Below, piece by piece: positions 2,812-49,416 of a stretch of DNA of 64,000 bases. The stretch comes from a virus. Location of the stretch: the IMG/VR virus record IMGVR_UViG_3300022555_000024, positions 1 through 64,000 of that record, one strand, 5' to 3'. The notes below the pieces were generated by a model, which worked only from the letters and a program-made list of their open reading frames with translations, did no database searches and was not told the origin of the DNA. Within the stretch, counting starts at the first letter, position 1. Every line of letters begins with the position of its first letter. The position numbers and the translations under genes were made by a program.

Positions 2812-3591
2812 ATGGCAACAACTTACGGAACTTTAACAAATATACATTTACCTCAGAATATAATGGAACTTAAGGACTATGTTAAACGTCGCTTAGGGCA
2901 TCCTGTTGTAAAAATAGACGTCACTGATGAGCAGTTCTATGATAGAATAGCAGATACTCTTCAATTTTATCAAGATTTCCACTACAATGGATCACTTAGA
3001 ACATACTCAAAGTGGCAGGTAACTCCTCAAGATATTGTTAATAGATATCTAACAACTAGCCCTAATGTTTTGGGTGTAACGAGAATTCTTGATCCTAGAA
3101 GCGCTCAGAGTTCTATGTTTACTTCTGTAGAATTTTGGCTTCGTTCTCAAATAAACTTCTTTGACTTCTTTGGTTCTACTCAAGCATCGTTCGTAGATTA
3201 TTTTCTTACTCAGCAGAGAATAGCAGATATGGATATGTTATTTAGATCAAATCCTAATATTCTATTTAGTAGAAATGATCACAGACTTTTTATAGAATTT
3301 GACTGGCAAAATGATATTAGAGTTGGGGATTGGATTGTTGCAGAAGTACACACATTTCTCGATCCACAAACTAGTAAAGATGTACTTAATGAAAGATTTA
3401 TACTTGCTCACGTTACAGCTTCTGTTAAGATGCAATGGGGAGAGAATTTGAAGAAATTCGGGGGAGTCCCTCTTCCCGGTGGCCTTACTGTCAATGGCGA
3501 CAAAATTTGGCAAGAAGGTAAAGATGAAAAAGAAACAATAGAAAAAGAATATATGTCTATGATTTTACCACCTTTAGATTTGATTGGATAA
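2812..3591 (+). CDS. gp13: Neck protein gp13
   Basis: ELKDYVKRRLGHPVVKIDVT, QWGENLKKFGGVPLPGGLTVNG motifs; position in the block. Confidence 0.93.
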   Translation: MATTYGTLTNIHLPQNIMELKDYVKRRLGHPVVKIDVTDEQFYDRIADTLQFYQDFHYNGSLRTYSKWQVTPQDIVNRYLTTSPNVLGVTRILDPRSAQSSMFTSVEFWLRSQINFFDFFGSTQASFVDYFLTQQRIADMDMLFRSNPNILFSRNDHRLFIEFDWQNDIRVGDWIVAEVHTFLDPQTSKDVLNERFILAHVTASVKMQWGENLKKFGGVPLPGGLTVNGDKIWQEGKDEKETIEKEYMSMILPPLDLIG

Positions 3592-3592
3592 C

Positions 3593-4645
3593 ATGTTAAG
3601 TTTCAAATCATTTATTATAGAAGGGGTTTATCTCTTAGAGGACCGACTTGATTATTTAGAAAAGAAATATCCAATTATTTCTATAAAACATGATCATTTA
3701 GCAAAATTAGAGAAAGCAAAAGATATTATACAATATTTTGCAGAAAATGCCGACCCTACATTTTCCAAGAAGTATACAGATTGGATTATTATACAATATA
3801 AAAATGGGAACGTTAGGCAAGAAGATGCACCAAGAATTCATGCGACGCTTAAGAATTTTGACAAATTTAAATCAAAATTAAAAAATAAAGATATTAATTT
3901 TTACAAACATTTAGATGAATTAGAACAACAATTGGAATCTCATCTTGGAACAAAATCTAATAGAGAGGTTGTGAAAGAAATAAAACACAAAGGAGCAGAC
4001 AAAGTTCTAGATAAAAATGATATCGTTGTTTATAAAATAAAAAATAAGGAAGCTGCCTGTTATTATGGTAAGGGAACAAAATGGTGCACAGCAGCAGATA
4101 ATTACAATAGATTTGATAGTTATAACAATAAAGGTCCGTTGTATATAATATTCGCTAAAGATATGCATGGAAAATTAGCTAAATACCAATTTCATTTTGA
4201 AACAGACTCTTATATGGATGAAAATGATAGATCTATCAACTTAGAAGATTTAGTAAAGAAAAATCCTGAACTTAAAGAAGTTCCTAATTGGCAAGGTAAA
4301 TCTTTAATATTGACATCCGATAAAAATTTTGGTAAATATTTTAATGTATTGTTAAAAAGTACACCACGTTTAACTTTAGCCGATCCAAGAACTACACAAG
4401 AATTTGTTAATAATGCATTAAATTCTCCAGATTATATGGTTAAGTTTCAGGCTCTAGATTATGATAATATATCTAAACAACAACTGTCAATGGCATTAAA
4501 TGATCCACATGAATCTGTTAGATATATGGCTATAGTTCATCCAAATATTACTAAGGCTCTTCTTTTAAGAGCTTCAGAAGATTATGATAAAACAAATAAA
4601 GATACTGCTAAAAAAAGATTATCTTCAGGAGATTTCAAACAATAA
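3593..4645 (+). CDS. Putative capsid-internal protein with a KWCT domain and C-terminal HEAT-like repeats
   Basis: Probable start MLSFKSFIIE (CTS-like); GTKWCTA motif; ALNSPDYMVK/ALNDPHESVR repeats. Confidence 0.6.
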   Translation: MLSFKSFIIEGVYLLEDRLDYLEKKYPIISIKHDHLAKLEKAKDIIQYFAENADPTFSKKYTDWIIIQYKNGNVRQEDAPRIHATLKNFDKFKSKLKNKDINFYKHLDELEQQLESHLGTKSNREVVKEIKHKGADKVLDKNDIVVYKIKNKEAACYYGKGTKWCTAADNYNRFDSYNNKGPLYIIFAKDMHGKLAKYQFHFETDSYMDENDRSINLEDLVKKNPELKEVPNWQGKSLILTSDKNFGKYFNVLLKSTPRLTLADPRTTQEFVNNALNSPDYMVKFQALDYDNISKQQLSMALNDPHESVRYMAIVHPNITKALLLRASEDYDKTNKDTAKKRLSSGDFKQ

Positions 4646-4656
4646 CACATATAATT

Positions 4657-5673
4657 ATGAAACCATATTTAACTTTATTAGAAGAAATAAGTCAATCTAT
4701 ATTACAGAATCAGTTAAAAGAATCTTTATTTGAACTTATAGAAGATTCAGAATTGGAAGATCTCTATTATTTTCAGGAAGAATTTATAGAAGAGAGTTTA
4801 GGTAATCTTCAGGGTGTTCCGCCGGGACTATTAAAAACTATTACAGGAAAAGGATCATATGGCAGTACTATAAGAGGCGGCGCTTATTCTAAAAGAGAAG
4901 AAACTTCTTCTGCAAAGACTAAAAGCCAGTTAAAGAGCATGATAGCTAATGCTGTTGGTGAACATAAAATGGCAATCATTCATAAGAATGGAAAGCCAAT
5001 TGCTGCTGTAGCACACAACGATGGATCTATCGAATGGAATGAAAGACCAAATTATAGTGTACATACACCAAATTCATCTGATGTTAATTTTATAGTTAAA
5101 AATCAAAGAAGTGGAACGTATCAGTATGTAAAAAGAGAATCTGTTTCTGGTTTCCCTAAAGGTGAAGCTATAGATAGAGCGATGAATAAGATAAACCGAA
5201 ATATAAACTTAGATGAACCTGAAAAAGAACATTTTAAGAAAAACTCATATAATGTAGTTACTATAGGTGTAGATAAAAGACGTAAGGCGGCTCACGATGC
5301 GAGATTGGAAAGAAAAAGAGCGGGAACAGATTCTATTACAAGTAATGAGATTATTGCATCTAAAAAACTTGCAAATAAAAAGCTAGGATCTACAGGCAAT
5401 CCTTATTATGTAGCATCTTTACTTTATAAAAAACTAGGAGATGCTATAGAACATTCAGATAAAGAAGGAGCGATTATTGCTACTAAAAATTTAGAAAAAC
5501 ACCTTAGCGATTATTATGGTGGTTTATCAAAAGAAGATAAAGATGTAGAAAAGTATGCTAAATTATTAAGAGACCTTAAAAGTGATTATAAAAGAGATAG
5601 CGATAGAGATAGAGATTATTATATAAAAGTTCGTCGTGCAGATTTAAAAATACTAAGAGATATTAGAAAATAA
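4657..5673 (+). CDS. Hypothetical protein, putative head-internal protein
   Basis: MKPYLTLLEE start, acidic leader, basic body; lies in the late operon. Confidence 0.55.
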   Translation: MKPYLTLLEEISQSILQNQLKESLFELIEDSELEDLYYFQEEFIEESLGNLQGVPPGLLKTITGKGSYGSTIRGGAYSKREETSSAKTKSQLKSMIANAVGEHKMAIIHKNGKPIAAVAHNDGSIEWNERPNYSVHTPNSSDVNFIVKNQRSGTYQYVKRESVSGFPKGEAIDRAMNKINRNINLDEPEKEHFKKNSYNVVTIGVDKRRKAAHDARLERKRAGTDSITSNEIIASKKLANKKLGSTGNPYYVASLLYKKLGDAIEHSDKEGAIIATKNLEKHLSDYYGGLSKEDKDVEKYAKLLRDLKSDYKRDSDRDRDYYIKVRRADLKILRDIRK

Positions 5674-5885
5674 TGAAAAATCGTACTTTGCAGAAAACAG
5701 AACTTATTGGTATTAGAGTATCTCCAAAGGAACGTAAAATTATAGAAAGTAATGCTGCACAAAATGATATGAGCCTTTCGAATTTTATAAGAGCTTCTGC
5801 AATCAACACTAAAGAAGTACGTACTACTATAAAAACAGAAAGAATAGAAGATAGTATTTTTGACTTTACGGAAAATCCAAATTAA
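5673..5885 (+). CDS. Ribbon-helix-helix DNA-binding protein (MobC/DUF1778-like)
   Basis: KTELIGIRVSPKERKIIESNAAQNDMSLSNFIRASA fits the RHH pattern. Confidence 0.7.
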   Translation: MKNRTLQKTELIGIRVSPKERKIIESNAAQNDMSLSNFIRASAINTKEVRTTIKTERIEDSIFDFTENPN

Positions 5886-5887
5886 AA

Positions 5888-6568
5888 ATGGCAACTAACC
5901 CTTATATAGATTTTAGAAATTATACATCAGCTCAGGACTTAGAGAAGTCTTTAATGGCAGAATCTATCGCTTTCTTTGGATTTGATGTAAATTATTTGCC
6001 TAGAACATTATTCTCTATTGATACAGTATTTGGAGAAGCGGCTCATAGTTCATTTGAAAGTTCTATGGTAATAGAAGCATATATGGAACAGACAGATAGA
6101 TTTGAAGGTCCTGGAGATCTCTTATCTAAGTTCGGAGTAGAAATCCATGACTCTGCGAGAATATGGATTTCTATGGATAGATTTGCAGAAGAAGCATTAA
6201 ATGTAGGATATGCAAATACAGAACAAATGAGATCTTACTTCCCTAGAGAAGGTGATCTTGTTCAATTTCCTTTTAATGGAAATATATTCCAAATAATGTA
6301 TGTAGAACATGAAAAGCCGTTCTGGCCACAAGGTACAAGACTATGCTGGGAACTAAGTCTTGAATTGTTCCAATACACAGGAGAAACATTCTCTACTGGA
6401 GATTCTAATATAGATTCTGTTACGACAAAATATCATGTTGGTTCTTCAAATACAGATTTACAGATCCCAGCAGACAACGTTCAATTTGAAATAGATGCCG
6501 CACAAATTTGCGATTTTAGTGAACCTAATCAATTTTCTGTAGAAAATCCATTTGGAGAATTGTTCTAA
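5888..6568 (+). CDS. gp14: Neck protein gp14
   Basis: YLPR, GDLLSKFGVEI, PREGDLVQFP, DFSEPNQF motifs. Confidence 0.93.
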   Translation: MATNPYIDFRNYTSAQDLEKSLMAESIAFFGFDVNYLPRTLFSIDTVFGEAAHSSFESSMVIEAYMEQTDRFEGPGDLLSKFGVEIHDSARIWISMDRFAEEALNVGYANTEQMRSYFPREGDLVQFPFNGNIFQIMYVEHEKPFWPQGTRLCWELSLELFQYTGETFSTGDSNIDSVTTKYHVGSSNTDLQIPADNVQFEIDAAQICDFSEPNQFSVENPFGELF

Positions 6569-23431: not shown

Positions 23432-24766
23432 ATGGAACATCTAACAGAGACTTTAGTTAAAAAGTGGACTCCTATATTGGATCATAAATCACTTGACCCA
23501 ATCAAAGATTCCTACAAAAAGAGTGTTGTAGCTACTATTTTAGAAACTACTGAAACTGTCTTAGGCAGCCAGGGTATGGTTTTTGAAGGTAACGTAGCTG
23601 GTGATAGCATGTCAGGTAACTATTCTGCGTCTAACAATTCAGATAATGGTTCGCTATCAAACTTCACCCCAGTTCTTATTTCACTTATCCGTCGTGCTAT
23701 TCCTCAGCTTATCGCTTTTGATATCTGTGGTGTTCAGCCGATGACAATGCCTACCGGACTTATCTTTGCTATGAGATCTGGATATGCTAATACAACTTCT
23801 GCTTTCCATAAGGAAGCATTGTTCAACGAAGCAAACTCTGCATTCTCAGGTGCTTCTTCTGGACATGGTGTAGCTGGTCTTCCAGGTACAGCAAATAATG
23901 CTCTTGCTCTATTTGATATTGGTATTGGTATTTCTACATCTACTGGTGAAGCAGATTCTGCATGGCCTCAGATGGGATTCACAATCGAAAAAGCAACAGT
24001 TGACGTTCAGACTCGTAGATTGAGAGCTGACTACACTTTAGAGCTTGCACAGGATCTTAAAGCAGTTCATAACCTTGATGCAGAATCAGAACTTTCTAAC
24101 ATCCTTTCACAGGAAATCTTAGGTGACATTAACCGTGAAGTTACTCGCCTTATTTATTCTGTAGCTAAAGCTGGTGGAACAAACAGCGTTGGTTCAGTTC
24201 AGCTTCAAGTAAAAGGTGGTATAAAAGCTGACATTGATGGTCGTTATTTTGCAGAACAGTGGAGAGGACTTCAGTTCTTAATCGAACGCGACGCTATTGG
24301 TATTGCAAAAGATACTCGTAGAGGAAAAGGTAACTTTATCATTGTTGATGCTGAAACCGCTTCTGCACTTTCACTTGCTGGTGTTCTTGATTACTCTACA
24401 GTAATTTCACCTAAAGCAACTCTTGCTGATGTGCCAGATGAAACTACATCAACCTTTGCCGGTACACTTGGTGGACGTCTTAAAGTATATGTAGATCCTT
24501 ACGTTACTCTTGGTGCTAACTTCTATTGCGTAGGTTATAAAGGAACATCTCCTTATGATGCTGGATTGTTCTATTGTCCTTACGTTCCTCTACAGTTGGT
24601 AAGAGCACAGGATCCTCATACATTCCAACCAGCAATCGGTTTCAAAACTAGATATGGTCTTGTAGAACATCCTTTCTCAGGTTCAACTTATTCACATAAG
24701 ATTAACCCAGGTGCATCTCACCAGAACAAATATTACAGAATTGCTGTAATCAATGGCTTAATATAA
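23432..24766 (+). CDS. gp23: Major capsid protein gp23
   Basis: LIRRAIPQLIAFDICGVQPM, ELAQDLKAVH, VGYKGTSPYDAGLFYCPYVPL, GFKTRYG. Confidence 0.98.
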   Translation: MEHLTETLVKKWTPILDHKSLDPIKDSYKKSVVATILETTETVLGSQGMVFEGNVAGDSMSGNYSASNNSDNGSLSNFTPVLISLIRRAIPQLIAFDICGVQPMTMPTGLIFAMRSGYANTTSAFHKEALFNEANSAFSGASSGHGVAGLPGTANNALALFDIGIGISTSTGEADSAWPQMGFTIEKATVDVQTRRLRADYTLELAQDLKAVHNLDAESELSNILSQEILGDINREVTRLIYSVAKAGGTNSVGSVQLQVKGGIKADIDGRYFAEQWRGLQFLIERDAIGIAKDTRRGKGNFIIVDAETASALSLAGVLDYSTVISPKATLADVPDETTSTFAGTLGGRLKVYVDPYVTLGANFYCVGYKGTSPYDAGLFYCPYVPLQLVRAQDPHTFQPAIGFKTRYGLVEHPFSGSTYSHKINPGASHQNKYYRIAVINGLI

Positions 24767-24830: not shown

Positions 24831-24838
24831 TATAAATA
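24831..24838 (+). promoter_or_regulatory. Late promoter TATAAATA
   Basis: Consensus upstream of gp3. Confidence 0.75.
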
Positions 24839-24861: not shown

Positions 24862-25416
24862 ATGCCATCGACACAGAAAGTAAATAATCTAAATTTTCTA
24901 TCAACTACAGGGTTTTCTTTTGCATTGGCAAGATGTCCTAATTTAACTTGGTTTGTTCAGGAAATTAACATGCCTGGTATATCTCTAGGTGATTCATCAA
25001 GAAATTATGCTACAGGTAAGGCAGCTATCCCTGGTGATAATTTGGAATACAACGAACTTACATTAACATTTGCTATTGATGAGTCTATGAATAATTGGAG
25101 AGAAATCTACAATTGGATGAGAAGTCTTGCCCCAACCCGTTTAGGAAAAGAAAATAATCAATATGCTACTTTAAGTAATTCTGATTTTGGTAGAATTTCT
25201 GATGGAACTCTTCTTATTATGACTAATTCTGTTAATGTTAATATAAGTGTAGATTTTAAAGATTTATTTCCCACTTCACTTTCTAATATTGAATTTAGAA
25301 CAACGGATACTGCTATAGAAGCAATAACATCTACAGTATCATTTAGATATAGTTATTATAATATAAGAGTAAACCCTGAGTATAATCTAACTTCAGTACC
25401 TGATAATATAGTATAA
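24862..25416 (+). CDS. gp3: Tail tube terminator / completion protein gp3
   Basis: NFLSTTGFSF, IPGDNLEY, IDESMNNWREIYNW, FKDLFPTSLS. Confidence 0.88.
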   Translation: MPSTQKVNNLNFLSTTGFSFALARCPNLTWFVQEINMPGISLGDSSRNYATGKAAIPGDNLEYNELTLTFAIDESMNNWREIYNWMRSLAPTRLGKENNQYATLSNSDFGRISDGTLLIMTNSVNVNISVDFKDLFPTSLSNIEFRTTDTAIEAITSTVSFRYSYYNIRVNPEYNLTSVPDNIV

Positions 25417-25657
25417 AAATAACATGTTCTGCGCGAGTTTCTTTTAATTAAAGGTAGTTATATCATCTATATTAAATAATATAAAATATATGAAATTATT
25501 TGTATGCCAGTATTAACTCTCTTCCCCTCATTTTAGAAATAACATGTTCTGTGCACTTCATAATCTTCTCTTTTTCTAGTAAATGTTACTATTTCTTTTT
25601 TAGCCCGACATTTCTATATTATTCTTATAAGAAAGATTGAACTAAAATAAAATTAAG

Positions 25658-26029
25658 ATGTCAACAAAGTCTTCAGAAGTTATAGTAGCATTATATAGAG
25701 ATTCATTTAATGGTGATCATGGTACATTTTATAACTATGATATAATTATGAAAAATGGTGATGATGGAATTTATACTTCTACCACCAAAAATCAAGATAG
25801 ATTTATAGTTGGTAAGGAGACAGAATATACCATATCTAGGTTTAATGGGAAAGTTAAAATAAAACCGATATATGGATTGCAAAAAGAAAAAAATGAATCT
25901 AATAAAATTATTGAACTTTTACAGGATATTCAATCTAAATTATACGATCAAGAGTATTTAATCTCTGAAATAAGAAAAGATATTAAGGGATTGAAAAATT
26001 TAAAACAACAAGTCGTTAATCTTACTTAA
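25658..26029 (+). CDS. Hypothetical protein, possible OB-fold ssDNA-binding domain plus coiled coil
   Basis: HGTFYNYDIIMKNGDDGIYTS...FIVGKETEYT...KIKP resembles small phage SSB-like proteins (recognition by eye). Confidence 0.45.
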   Translation: MSTKSSEVIVALYRDSFNGDHGTFYNYDIIMKNGDDGIYTSTTKNQDRFIVGKETEYTISRFNGKVKIKPIYGLQKEKNESNKIIELLQDIQSKLYDQEYLISEIRKDIKGLKNLKQQVVNLT

Positions 26030-26039
26030 CGAATGTAGT

Positions 26040-26860
26040 ACAAAAGAACAAAAGGTGGACCCATAGTAGTATTTGCGAAATATAGAAGAGAGCATCTAAA
26101 TATTATGGGAACAGAATATCTGAAAACCCGGGGCTTGCAGATGGAGAACAATAGTAAGAATTGTTGCTGAATACCGGAGTCGCAGAGAAAGAAACCACCA
26201 CCGCTAATGGCGGTTCCTTAGTCGAGGAGTCAACACCTATTGATTACACTTGAAAGAGTTGTCAGACAGCAAGGTGTGTAGGCAGTAAGAAATTACTGTT
26301 GAGATAAGGTCACGTTTTAGGAAGGACACGAAAGTGCCTAGAAATTCAGTGAGACTATGATTTACAGAATCAGAAATAATTTCTAAGATGAGAGAACTGT
26401 TTCTTCTCATTAAGACAAAAAAAAGAACACACGATCCAGTCTAGTAATGAAGTTACACGGCGCGCATCCCTAATCAGGTTAAAGGCGTTCACGAAAAACT
26501 GAGGGACAATTTGTATTTTTTATTTTTCTTGAACTTCACGTGAGATCCGACAAGGAGCCGTCTTGCGTGAAGACAGGAGCACTCTGGTAATCAGGGTTTG
26601 GATAATCTAAAAGCATTTAACCTTGATAAGCTAATAAGCTAGCAATCATCTAACCTTGATAATCCAATATTGATAAACTAGCAATCAAGCAATTATCTAA
26701 CCCTGGAAAACCCTAACCACATGGAGCCTTGCTCCAACAGAATTGGAAACCAATTCTGTAGAACATGATTATCAAGCATAACCATCATAACCATTAAAAT
26801 ACAAGTAGAGCCTAGTCAAGACGGGCTATTCAAGGGTTTAGTACTTGATTTCTTTTTGTC
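26040..26860 (+). ncRNA. Candidate large structured RNA and/or replication origin
   Basis: No ORF of 60 aa or more, GC above background, many stems (some GAAA-capped) and short direct repeats. Confidence 0.5.
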
Positions 26861-26906
26861 TAATCACTTGCTATATTATTAATCAAGAATAACTTAAAAA
26901 TAATTA

Positions 26907-27347
26907 ATGGCAAAGATAGAAGACATAGAAGAACTTTGGAATAATGATTGTGAAATAGATTCAGTCATGCTAGATGTAGCTGCTTTAGATATTCCTAAAT
27001 TACATAATAAATATCTTATTATTCATAACGAAGTAAGATTACTTTTATTACAACTAGAAGAAAAGTATAATGATCTTGCTATGATAAAAAGTTCATATTA
27101 TACCGGTAAAATGTCTAAGGAAGAATTAGATGAAAAAGGATGGGAACCATTTCAGATCAAGGTTCTTAGGAGTGATGTAAAATCTTATCTAGAAACTGAT
27201 CCTGACGTAAGAAAGATTAAAACAAGAATAGAATATAATAAGATAGTGCTAGAATACCTTAAATCTATAATAGAACAGATTAATAAAAGAAATTTTAGTA
27301 TATCTTCTGCAATTGCTTGGAGAAAGTTTACATCAGGAGAACATTAA
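26907..27347 (+). CDS. uvsY: Recombination mediator UvsY
   Basis: IPKLHNKY, YYTGK, INKRNFSISSAIAWRKFTSG. Confidence 0.93.
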   Translation: MAKIEDIEELWNNDCEIDSVMLDVAALDIPKLHNKYLIIHNEVRLLLLQLEEKYNDLAMIKSSYYTGKMSKEELDEKGWEPFQIKVLRSDVKSYLETDPDVRKIKTRIEYNKIVLEYLKSIIEQINKRNFSISSAIAWRKFTSGEH

Positions 27348-27350
27348 CGG

Positions 27351-28799
27351 ATGCCAGATGTAATTATCCATAAGGTAGATCAGGTTTGGTTGAAGGTAGA
27401 ATGTGAAAAAAGTATTCTTTATGAAATTTCAGACGCATTTTCTTTTTATGCTCCTAATTATAAATTCAATCCAAAATTTAAACATAAAATTTGGGATGGA
27501 AAGATTAGGTTAATTAATTTATCTTCATGTAAGATGTATTATGGTCTGCATTCTTCTTTAAAAAAGTTTTTAGAAAAATCAGATTATTCTGTAGAATATG
27601 CAGCTGGGTTCTTTAATAAATCTACTATTAGTTATGATCCTAAAGAAATTGAATCTGCTAATTTTGAACCTAGAAATTATCAAATAGAGGCAGTTAAATT
27701 TGCGTTAGAAAATAAAAGATGTATTCTTCTTTCTCCAACTGGGTCTGGAAAATCTTTTATTATCTACATGATAATGAAGCACATTAAAAAAAGAACATTA
27801 ATAATAGTTCCTACTATAGGTTTAGTTCATCAACTAGCGTCTGATTTTGTAGGATATAATCCAAAATGTGCCAATTGGATTCATAAAATAATGGCAGGAG
27901 AAGATAAGGACACAAAGAAACCTATAGTAATATCTACTTGGCAAAGTTTAACTAAACAAACAGATAGTTGGTTTAATCAATTTGATTGTATAGTAGGAGA
28001 TGAAGTTCATTTATTCGCTGCCACTTCTCTATGTGGAATTATGGAAAAAAATCATAATACAGAATGGAGAATAGGAACAACAGGAACTATATCTAATGTG
28101 GATGCTAAAGTTAATTCTCTTACATTAGAAGGTCTTTTTGGAACGATTTATAAAGTTTCTTCTACAAAGGAATTAATGGACGATAATTATTTGGCAAAAT
28201 TCAAAATAAACATTTTACTTTTAAAACACGACAAAGAGACTAGTATTAAAGTTCGTAAAATGAATTATCAAGAAGAAGTAGACTTCTTTGTTAGAAATGA
28301 AAAAAGAAACAAGTTTATTTGTAATTTAGCATTATCACAAAAAAAGAATACTTTAATTTTATTTCAGTTTGTAGAAAAACAAGGCAAAGTCCTTTATGAA
28401 ATGATAAAGGAGAAAGCTGGTAATAAAAAGATTTATTTCATATCTGGAGAAATTGATGGTGAAATTAGAGAAAAAATAAGAAATTCCGTCAATTCTAGTG
28501 AAGATAATATAATAATTGGAAGTTTTGGAACAGTTTCTACAGGTTTGGATATTCCTAATTTGCATGTGATAATATTTGCATCTACATATAAATCAAAGAT
28601 TAAAAATTTACAGTCTATAGGTAGAGGTTTAAGATTAAATGAAGGAAAAGATATTGCGGTTCTCTATGATATTGTAGATGATTGTTCTGTAAAATCTAAA
28701 AAAAATTATTCCATATTACATTTATTGGAAAGAATAAAAATATATAATGAAGAACAGTTTGATTTTAAAATAATAGATATTCCATTTAATAATAAATAA
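27351..28799 (+). CDS. uvsW: DNA helicase UvsW
   Basis: WDGKIRL, SPTGSGKS, GDEVH, LQSIGRGLR. Confidence 0.95.
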   Translation: MPDVIIHKVDQVWLKVECEKSILYEISDAFSFYAPNYKFNPKFKHKIWDGKIRLINLSSCKMYYGLHSSLKKFLEKSDYSVEYAAGFFNKSTISYDPKEIESANFEPRNYQIEAVKFALENKRCILLSPTGSGKSFIIYMIMKHIKKRTLIIVPTIGLVHQLASDFVGYNPKCANWIHKIMAGEDKDTKKPIVISTWQSLTKQTDSWFNQFDCIVGDEVHLFAATSLCGIMEKNHNTEWRIGTTGTISNVDAKVNSLTLEGLFGTIYKVSSTKELMDDNYLAKFKINILLLKHDKETSIKVRKMNYQEEVDFFVRNEKRNKFICNLALSQKKNTLILFQFVEKQGKVLYEMIKEKAGNKKIYFISGEIDGEIREKIRNSVNSSEDNIIIGSFGTVSTGLDIPNLHVIIFASTYKSKIKNLQSIGRGLRLNEGKDIAVLYDIVDDCSVKSKKNYSILHLLERIKIYNEEQFDFKIIDIPFNNK

Positions 28800-36374: not shown

Positions 36375-36817
36375 AATTTCTTTTTTGTTGCATTTTGTTG
36401 TATATTATACTATAAGAAAAATAACTAAATATTATATATCATGATGATAGCAACCGTTATTCATAAAGCATTCGAAAAAGAAGAAAAAATTGTAGCAATG
36501 ATTGCTGTTGATGCTGAAGTAGTAACTGATGCGCTGGAATATGTTTATGAAAAGACTCAGAATCTTTATGACGCGTGGACAGAAAATGAAGACATTGCAG
36601 TTTTTAATTTAAAAGATTCACATCGTAGCACTTCTGTTGGAGATATTATAGTATTGGATGGTACTTCTTTTGAAGTGGAAGCAATGGGTTTTTCAATTAT
36701 AATGTAATATTCAAACAGAATTTGCTACAGTAGAAACTTTCAGAAAATAAAATTTCTTTTTTGTTGCATTTTGTTGTATATTATATTATAAGAAAAATAA
36801 CTAAATATTATATTATG
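36369..36817 (+). repeat. ~70-bp direct repeat (36369-36443 and 36745-36817): duplicated promoter and leader
   Basis: AAATAAAATTTCTTTTTTGTTGCATTTTGTTGTATATTATA(C/T)TATAAGAAAAATAACTAAATATTATAT precedes the ATG of two consecutive genes. Confidence 0.9.
36441..36707 (+). CDS. Hypothetical protein (RSTSVGD motif, YodL-like)
   Basis: HRSTSVGDIIVLDG...VEAMGF. Confidence 0.65.
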   Translation: MMIATVIHKAFEKEEKIVAMIAVDAEVVTDALEYVYEKTQNLYDAWTENEDIAVFNLKDSHRSTSVGDIIVLDGTSFEVEAMGFSIIM

Positions 36818-45865: not shown

Positions 45866-45940
45866 TGGGAAGAGACAAGAGGAAAATTGCTGATTCGACA
45901 CGGATCATACGCAGTTTTACTCCTCTTCCCATTTTTATTT
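45866..45940 (+). terminator. Long hairpin terminator after hsp20
   Basis: TGGGAAGAG...CTCTTCCCA with nested AAAATTGC/GCAGTTTT, then a T-rich run. Confidence 0.65.
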
Positions 45941-45989
45941 TACAACTTCATTGCTATATTATTAACATAATGAAAATTAAGAATTACTA

Positions 45990-49044: not shown

Positions 49045-49410
49045 GGGGGTGACGGGATTTTGCCAGTCAAATAGTTAAATAGGAGTGCAGTTCGAGTTTC
49101 AGCATGGATGGACTCGTTAAAGAAGTCTATGTAAACAATAAATGCAGACACTTTCGAGTATCGCATGGCTGCTTGATCTTAACAGACAAACACCAAATTT
49201 GATAACTATATAGACGCTGAGTAGTTATCATCTAAAAATATTAGCAGTCGTCTTTGGTCCGAAGTTTCATCTCACCAATGTACTAAATTTGAAACTAGGT
49301 ATATCTCTTCCTGTTTGTGGGAAGTCAATTACCGAACAATAACACAAACATGACTGTAACACTTTTATTTTTCGTTTGGTTGTACGAGGGTTCGACTCCC
49401 TCCACTTCCA
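49045..49410 (+). ncRNA. ssrA: tmRNA; tag (A)ADTFEYRMAA*
   Basis: Acceptor GGGGGTG/CACTTCC-A with G3.U; T-arm GAGGG-TTCGACT-CCCTC; ATAAAT precedes resume codon GCA at 49144; stop at 49174-49176. Confidence 0.92.
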
Positions 49411-49416
49411 CAAAAT

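Follow-up and report, generated by a model that had tools for sequence, protein, structure and literature searches.

A GC-rich non-coding spacer beside uvsY as a candidate structured RNA of an uncultured marine T4-like phage

The window analyzed here, 64 kb from the start of a 112-kb IMG/VR virus record (IMGVR_UViG_3300022555_000024, G000), comes from an uncultured marine T4-like myophage (31.6% GC) and holds an 877-nt spacer free of open reading frames (ORFs; positions 26030–26906, GC 0.38) between a 123-aa gene with a predicted OB fold and the recombination mediator gene uvsY. The spacer is non-coding and no remnant of a protein was detected in it, a conclusion that is firmly supported. We favor the reading that a + strand transcript of it functions as one or several structured RNA modules, to which we give a little less than an even chance; the case for it rests on composition and context, and its value is that of a lead. 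A shorter element in the same slot of two sister phages, in which paired positions have changed together, is the better supported of the two candidate RNAs.

A non-coding, GC-rich spacer inside a probable + strand unit

An earlier note, made from the letters of the window, had described 26040–26600 as an ORF-free, GC-enriched and densely structured candidate for a large non-coding RNA (ncRNA). The words that it quoted all stand at the places it gave, among them GGTGG (26054–26058) and CCACC (26195–26199), CCCATAGTA (26060) and TATTATGGG (26101), and CTTCACGTGAGA (26534) and TCTTGCGTGAAG (26561). Its ORF-free claim was borne out, as no ORF of the spacer exceeds 57 aa (− strand) or 30 aa (+ strand), and nowhere else in the 112-kb genome do ORFs of at least 60 aa fail over so long a distance. 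The one translated + frame contains 25 stops in 292 codons, and the 3-nt periodicity of the spacer (z −1.1) compares with 4.7 for the 123-aa gene, 5.8 for uvsY, 16 for the tail-tube gene and 28 for the capsid gene. Six-frame read-through translations (X at stops) had no match in Pfam or PHROG at E ≤ 1, and none of the seven spurious ORF translations that were tried is a called protein in a collection of 15 billion proteins. A decayed gene was considered as well and ruled out, given the empty read-through searches in Pfam and PHROGs and the lack of periodicity.

The GC enrichment is equally clear (0.375–0.435 over 26000–26600 vs. 0.25–0.27 in the flanks). On a map of ORFs of at least 90 aa the spacer ranks first in GC content among 32 gaps, followed by a 344-nt gap at the start of the contig (0.36) and by the gap that holds the transfer-messenger RNA (tmRNA; 0.35). 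The core (26040–26600) has a GC content of 0.41, with G exceeding C and A exceeding T on the + strand, and no paralogue of the spacer was found within the genome. The fact that a compact genome keeps an 877-nt insert which is absent in a more distant relative (L004), where the tail-tube gene abuts uvsY, suggests a function.

The context on the + strand is set by a bipartite promoter-like motif, TTTCTTTTT-N14/15-TATATTAT, which occurs in four copies in the window (0.02 expected), all on the + strand and just upstream of genes:

25592–25622, +, promoter-like motif preceding the 123-aa gene
26849–26879, +, promoter-like motif 28 nt before the uvsY ATG
36377–36408, +, promoter-like motif
36753–36784, +, promoter-like motif
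near 45930–45962, looser copy of the motif

This motif differs from the T4-type late motif TATAAATA that precedes structural genes (e.g., at 24831) and likely represents the early or middle promoter class of the phage, with a T-rich upstream box. The copy at 25592–25622 is the probable start of a transcription unit running into the spacer. With the copies at 25592 and 26849 on either side, the spacer would lie inside a + strand unit that begins at 25592. A further promoter was sought at 26100, where ATATTATGGG is shared with the promoter region of the sister phage L002, but a matching upstream element is missing there; for a post hoc comparison the shared word is close to chance, and the candidate was rejected.

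Transcription of the spacer, a role of the RNA as its functional product and the binding partner of this RNA are inferred. Transcription would start at 25592–25622 and pass through the OB-fold gene into the spacer, where both the GC-rich body (~26040–26590) and a 3′ domain (26525–26850) would act as RNA, probably as a string of hairpin domains, each folding by itself, and not as one globular ribozyme. The product would either remain part of the mRNA of the OB-fold gene, as its long structured 3′ tail, or be cut from that mRNA by processing. Its most likely action would be the binding or titration of a protein, possibly of the adjacent OB-fold protein or of a host factor. The part of the earlier note that proposed a large phage ncRNA thus fares unevenly: the non-coding status holds firmly, a + strand RNA is the most plausible product judging from composition and context, and the suggestion of a ribozyme derivative was not upheld.

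Folding of the spacer and the readings it bears on

The structural parts found in the spacer are as follows (MFE, minimum free energy):

26060–26109, +, hairpin CCCATAGTA / TATTATGGG, 9 bp with one G.U pair and an inner 3-bp helix (pair probability 0.99)
26214–26197, −, terminator-like hairpin ACCGCC...GGTGGT followed by GGTTTCTTTC, the sole such site in 25300–27100
26249–26260, +, small hairpin ACTT-GAAA-GAGT, missing from the MFE fold
26281–26300, +, 8-bp hairpin GGCAGTAA-GAAA-TTACTGTT (pair probability 0.95), with two G.U pairs that are A-C mismatches on the − strand
26323–26339, +, hairpin AGG-A-CAC-GAAA-GTG-CCT (pair probability 0.82–0.97)
26527–26578, +, long hairpin with a 5-bp base, the 12-bp stem CTTCACGTGAGA / TCTTGCGTGAAG and a 3-bp tip, a 20-bp composite (pair probability 0.81–0.99)
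26590–26712, no strand assigned, G-poor, C/A-rich tract with repeated TAACCYTG and with TTGATAA as read on the + strand (GC skew −0.29)
26655–26776, +, domain closed by the perfect 10-bp inverted repeat CTTGATAATC / GATTATCAAG
26722–26736 and 26737–26759, +, two adjacent perfect hairpins within the preceding domain (p 0.96 and 0.99)
26802–26858, +, branched hairpin followed by ATTTCTTTTTG (−13 kcal/mol, z −0.7), weakly terminator-like

The excess of folding energy over chance was expressed as the z-score of the MFE against shuffled sequences, with two RNAs as controls:

26030–26906, whole spacer, z −3.1 to −3.25 (+) and −3.4 to −3.9 (−)
26040–26600, region of the earlier note, z −2.4 (+) and −3.1 (−)
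26045–26525, bulk of that region, z −1.24 (+), with 10 of 100 shuffles folding equally well
26525–26850, 3′ segment, z −4.29 (+; 0 of 100 shuffles) and −3.07 (−)
49045–49413, tmRNA as control, z −1.99 (+)
sister RNA of phage L003 as control, z −0.36 (+)

The clear excess of structure thus lies in 26525–26850, mostly past the position where the earlier note had ended its candidate; the 150-nt segment 26650–26799 has z −5.3 on the + strand and −3.3 on the − strand. The 12-bp stem CTTCACGTGAGA / TCTTGCGTGAAG, with two adjacent G.U pairs, falls within this segment. Several hairpins have pair probabilities of at least 0.95 in the full-length partition function, and the mean local 50-nt folding energy of 26040–26600 is marginally low on both strands (p ~0.03). 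"Densely structured" is weakly supported: stable local hairpins exist, but the core shows no clear excess over chance (26045–26525, z −1.24). The long-range GGTGG/CCACC helix, drawn in the earlier note as enclosing several others, formed in one sub-fold only and was absent from the full-length fold. As for the comparison with shuffled controls that the same note had proposed, the core does not stand out in it, though real RNAs are weak there too: the tmRNA and the covarying sister RNA also score poorly, which makes folding energy indecisive here in either direction.

Several observations weigh against a structured RNA on the + strand. An excess of structure in the core 26045–26525, which folds like shuffled sequence, is weakly supported, the two strands score alike in folding, and the high ensemble diversity speaks for no well-defined global fold. 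The GAAA loops and G.U pairs that had been taken to favor the + strand point both ways: in its favor, the GAAA caps occur solely on this strand (three hairpins vs. none on the − strand), but the number of such GNRA hairpins is within chance, as shuffles reach at least three in 16–29% of cases, and no systematic G.T bias accompanies them. Also in its favor, hand inspection shows that four of the strongest stems contain G.U pairs which would become A-C mismatches if read on the − strand; counted over all imperfect stems of the spacer, G.T and A.C positions number 26 and 46, respectively, with a similar spread in the controls and no strand bias. Moreover, the GC-rich part is not directly preceded by a promoter, no terminator before uvsY is convincing, and blastn against 50,697 phage genomes returned no homologue of the spacer at E 1e−5 or E 10. 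Confidence in the RNA reading is not higher because the spacer is an orphan, its core folds like shuffles and both strands behave alike. After the branched hairpin at 26802–26858, the T run of ATTTCTTTTTG doubles as the upstream half of the promoter motif of uvsY, and a role of this hairpin as a terminator is doubtful since none precedes the other motif copies.

The similarity of the two strands bears on a second RNA reading, in which the transcript comes from the − strand, starting near 26890–26913 and ending at the terminator-like hairpin at 26214–26197 with its T-rich tail. Two overlapping predictions fall on that site against 0.4 expected, a weak sigma-70-like site lies at 26913–26886 on the same strand, and MFE and z on the − strand are as good as on the + strand. 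However, nearly all genes and all promoter-motif copies are on the + strand, GNRA-capped hairpins are absent on the − strand, the transcript would be C-rich over the GC-rich core, and a GG stands between the terminator stem and the T run, so we consider a − strand RNA very improbable.

The 3′ part also invites a reading at the level of DNA, as a control region beside uvsY, either a replication origin or a protein-binding array, at a position like that of T4 ori(uvsY)/oriF. The tract 26590–26712 contains a 43-nt direct repeat (77% identity), and CARGGTTW, the form of the TAACCYTG motif on the other strand, has 4 of its 14 window sites within 26592–26705, in both orientations; these repeats may be alternative RNA partners of ATCAGGGTT at 26590, or DNA binding sites. 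As an origin, the TAACCYTG/TTGATAA motifs and the inverted repeats of 26590–26780 would be protein sites, the uvsY promoter and the AT-rich start of uvsY would fire, and the spacer RNA could serve as a pre-primer like ColE1 RNA II. The strongest structure excess is equal on the two strands (z −4.3 and −3.1), as DNA palindromes would give, and the two perfect 10-bp inverted repeats, the 43-nt direct repeat and the clustering of 4 of 14 motif sites within 114 nt fit this reading, as does the location, flanked by the SSB-like OB-fold gene and by uvsY-uvsW and near the promoter motif of 26849–26879, T4 oriF being located at uvsY. The DNA downstream of this promoter motif has a GC content of 25%, and the resemblance to T4 origins is positional only. 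On the other hand, the GC-rich body (26040–26590) would be left unexplained, T4-type origins lack iterons and do not require a long spacer, the cumulative GC skew, which climbs monotonically across the whole contig, has no inflection at the spacer, the spacer-free L004 manages without it, and a tandem duplication might simply account for the repeats. We regard a control region as unlikely.

The remaining proposal of the earlier note, a group I-like intron or other ribozyme derivative, drew on loose words in P-Q-R-S order. These are present in the sequence, and they are all that speaks for a degenerate self-splicing intron. Rfam at gathering scores found the tmRNA (49045–49413) as its sole match in the whole window, and a permissive search of 25900–27000 on both strands (E ≤ 10) gave only chance hits of the snoRNA type (E ≥ 1.2). 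Group I (RF00028) and group II introns, ROOL, GOLLD and RNase P are therefore unmatched in the spacer, as are HEARO, OLE, 6S and the small self-cleaving ribozymes; for group II there was neither a covariance match to domains V/VI nor a reverse transcriptase-like ORF nearby. With 11 related loci included, the Rfam searches still gave nothing except the tmRNA. The intron idea fails on anatomy too, since no exons flank the spacer: the upstream gene stops at 26027–26029, the translated + frame of the spacer is full of stops, and uvsY is complete by itself. An intron or ribozyme derivative is the least credible of the readings weighed here. An RNA like ToxI of type III toxin-antitoxin systems finds no backing either, as Tandem Repeats Finder gave only 8- and 9-nt two-copy repeats, no Rfam family matched, and the neighbors are the OB-fold gene and uvsY, in place of the ToxN-type endoribonuclease gene expected of such an RNA.

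The same slot in sister phages and the genomic setting

Homologues of the spacer, for which the earlier note had proposed a search of phage metagenomes, did not appear in the phage genomes, nor by blastn and nhmmer in 75 fetched loci, and when viral and prokaryote collections were scanned for four exact words (18–20-mers), the sole matches were chance ones in GC-rich DNA. The nearest relatives reachable through UvsY in viral contigs are L002 and L003 (65% identical), while through the capsid protein the nearest is L013 (75%), whose contig stops before the slot. Closer relatives of UvsY exist as proteins (P0002–P0010, 66–79% identity). No copy of the 123-aa protein was found in viral contigs and none of UvsY in prokaryote genomes, and a scan of metagenome contigs from the UvsY alignment, with overly general peptide patterns, reached only distant phages (33–47% identity).

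In L002 and L003 the slot between the tail-tube-like gene and uvsY is taken by a GC-rich, ORF-free element of ~350 nt:

L003 (IMGVR_UViG_3300033064_001327), ~3518–3869, sister element
L002 (IMGVR_UViG_3300009469_000031), ~687–1019, sister element

The two copies are 75% identical, have no Rfam match and are the only ones in IMG/VR. The element starts just after a promoter of the TATATTAT type, which recurs elsewhere in L003. An 8-bp terminal helix closes the element, and in L002 a hairpin and T run follow that we read as a terminator. Among the 90 pairs of the consensus fold, 10 are compensatory, 14 show one-sided changes to or from G.U and none is broken, whereas slid controls (partner shifted by 1–3 columns) gave 0–1 compensatory pairs. 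This covariation comes from two sequences, and the structure was derived from the same two, so we call the evidence for a new structured RNA suggestive, not conclusive, although it is hard to explain otherwise. The compensatory pairs imply that the lineage does keep structured RNAs at this slot.

The sister element and the spacer share the slot before uvsY, the strand, a high GC content, the lack of ORFs and of Rfam matches, and an upstream promoter of the TATATTAT type, and the order of major capsid protein, tail-tube-like gene, element, uvsY and uvsW is common to the window and the sister phages. Unlike the spacer, which is twice as long and follows a protein gene, the sister element starts at its promoter and has a closing helix. 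No similarity between the two was detected by blastn, nhmmer or a hidden Markov model of the pair, and covariance models of two sister sub-domains (R1, R2) gave a best spacer hit of 10.8 bits (E 0.039), which is motif-poor, their other best hits lying in coding DNA. A bolder version of the RNA reading, which we think rather improbable, would make the spacer a lineage-specific RNA of ~550–800 nt that works with the OB-fold/coiled-coil protein, either within a ribonucleoprotein or as a pre-primer that is loaded, like RNA II, at an origin on the uvsY side; the spacer RNA would then match the sister RNA in function, and the slot would be a dedicated, fast-evolving "RNA slot" tied to recombination-dependent replication.

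The L013 contig carries an extra 228-aa ORF (5253–5939) between the capsid and tail-tube genes, maybe a free-standing homing endonuclease, which marks the neighborhood as an insertion hot spot. In the remaining alternative, the spacer is inert or decaying acquired DNA, left by a mobile element or by a gene of GC-richer origin that entered a known insertion hot spot between the late and the recombination gene blocks, with no function as RNA. This would suit the orphan status of the spacer in every database searched, the variability of the slot (empty in L004, another element in L002 and L003, the additional ORF one gene upstream in L013) and a core that folds like shuffled sequence. But no frame holds a protein remnant or residual periodicity, phage genomes are compact and the spacer is the largest non-coding stretch of this one, and its 3′ part is clearly non-random. 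The surroundings are also stable: the capsid, tail-tube, 123-aa and UvsY proteins have letter-for-letter copies on 109–118 public contigs, and flanking proteins unchanged on more than 100 independent contigs indicate an abundant, nearly clonal phage population with a stable arrangement. Inert DNA is in our view not a probable explanation, on a par with the control region.

The genes around the spacer, and the tmRNA of the window, are:

23432–24766, major capsid protein
24862–25416, tail-tube-like gene, with the late-type motif TATAAATA in front (24831)
25658–26029, +, 123-aa gene, stop at 26027–26029
26030–26906, +, ORF-free spacer (877 nt)
26907–27347, +, uvsY (PF11056, E 6.5e−30; PHROG 231)
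27351–28799, +, uvsW (UvsW_N, ResIII and Helicase_C domains)
49045–49413, complete one-piece tmRNA (Rfam 104.8 bits; ARAGORN tag peptide ADTFEYRMAA; GC 0.39)

Essentially all long ORFs of the 112-kb genome share the + strand. With its counterparts in marine cyanomyophages and in Pelagibacter phage HTVC008M, the major capsid protein has ~50% identity. Pelagimyophages and Melnitz-type phages are reported to have two-piece tmRNAs (PMC9004378); the one-piece tmRNA found here, unlike theirs, argues against an alphaproteobacterial host.

The identity of the downstream gene as uvsY, as the earlier note had it, is certain from the PF11056 match; the gene starts at its own ATG and its product aligns to homologues from residue 1–2. 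For the upstream gene, called SSB-like in that note, the label is reasonable at the level of the fold, given the predicted OB barrel. The AlphaFold model built on a 40-sequence alignment (pLDDT 86, with blocks at 95–98 over residues 1–70), which replaced a single-sequence model (pLDDT 63), predicts five strands, with an OB fold over residues 1–72 followed by a long C-terminal helix (80–122, 43 residues). The best Foldseek matches to this model were OB domains of RPA, SSB, PrgE and Teb1 (probability 0.99–1.0, E ≥ 0.013), and VIA aligned it with the OB domain of RecO (Z 7.5; root-mean-square deviation 2.1, 61 aligned), LEF-3 (6.7), PriB (6.5) and SSBs (~6); with Z below 8 these values are only middling and show the fold, not homology. 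No Pfam (including SSB) or PHROG family matched the protein, and its N-terminal 72 residues are shared with 141 representative proteins (E < 1e−3), i.e., a widespread viral family. From the model, it may be an unrecognized small protein beside uvsY/uvsW that binds single-stranded DNA or acts as a mediator.

Comparison with known systems

The spacer can be compared with two transcription-primed origins. T4 ori(uvsY)/oriF consists of a middle promoter and an unwinding element and fires through an R-loop, and ColE1 RNA II is a long structured transcript that primes replication; like oriF, the spacer adjoins uvsY and has a promoter with AT-rich DNA downstream, and a long structured transcript could in principle prime replication here in the manner of RNA II, whereas oriF has no long GC-rich spacer. 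With the T4-like group I introns (td, nrdB, nrdD) it shares the character of a GC-enriched structured insert, but it lies between genes and has no covariance match, no exons and no homing endonuclease. ROOL and GOLLD are of the same size class (500–800 nt), occur in phages and had no known function at discovery; they differ in their conserved multi-domain fold and usual place near tRNA genes, and the spacer matches neither at E ≤ 10. The stable RNAs rnaC and rnaD of T4 and the pseudo-ToxI modules are likewise GC-rich, ORF-free islands in an AT-rich genome that form a chain of hairpins. Such T4-like ncRNA islands measure 100–400 nt, often lie by tRNA genes or rIII and are conserved across many phages, while the spacer, at 560–880 nt, sits beside uvsY, is an orphan and lacks ToxI-like tandem repeats.

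Should the spacer prove to be a functional RNA, it would rank among the largest ncRNAs of a T4-like phage, without a family assignment and from an abundant marine phage; it would then be an unclassified phage ncRNA, large and oddly placed, but of a kind already known to exist. Of most interest is that unrelated large RNAs may have come to occupy one slot repeatedly: if the spacer RNA holds true together with the sister RNA, the clade would exchange large structured RNAs time and again at one site beside its recombination genes (the SSB-like OB-fold gene, uvsY and uvsW), a pattern that to our knowledge is undescribed for T4-like phages.

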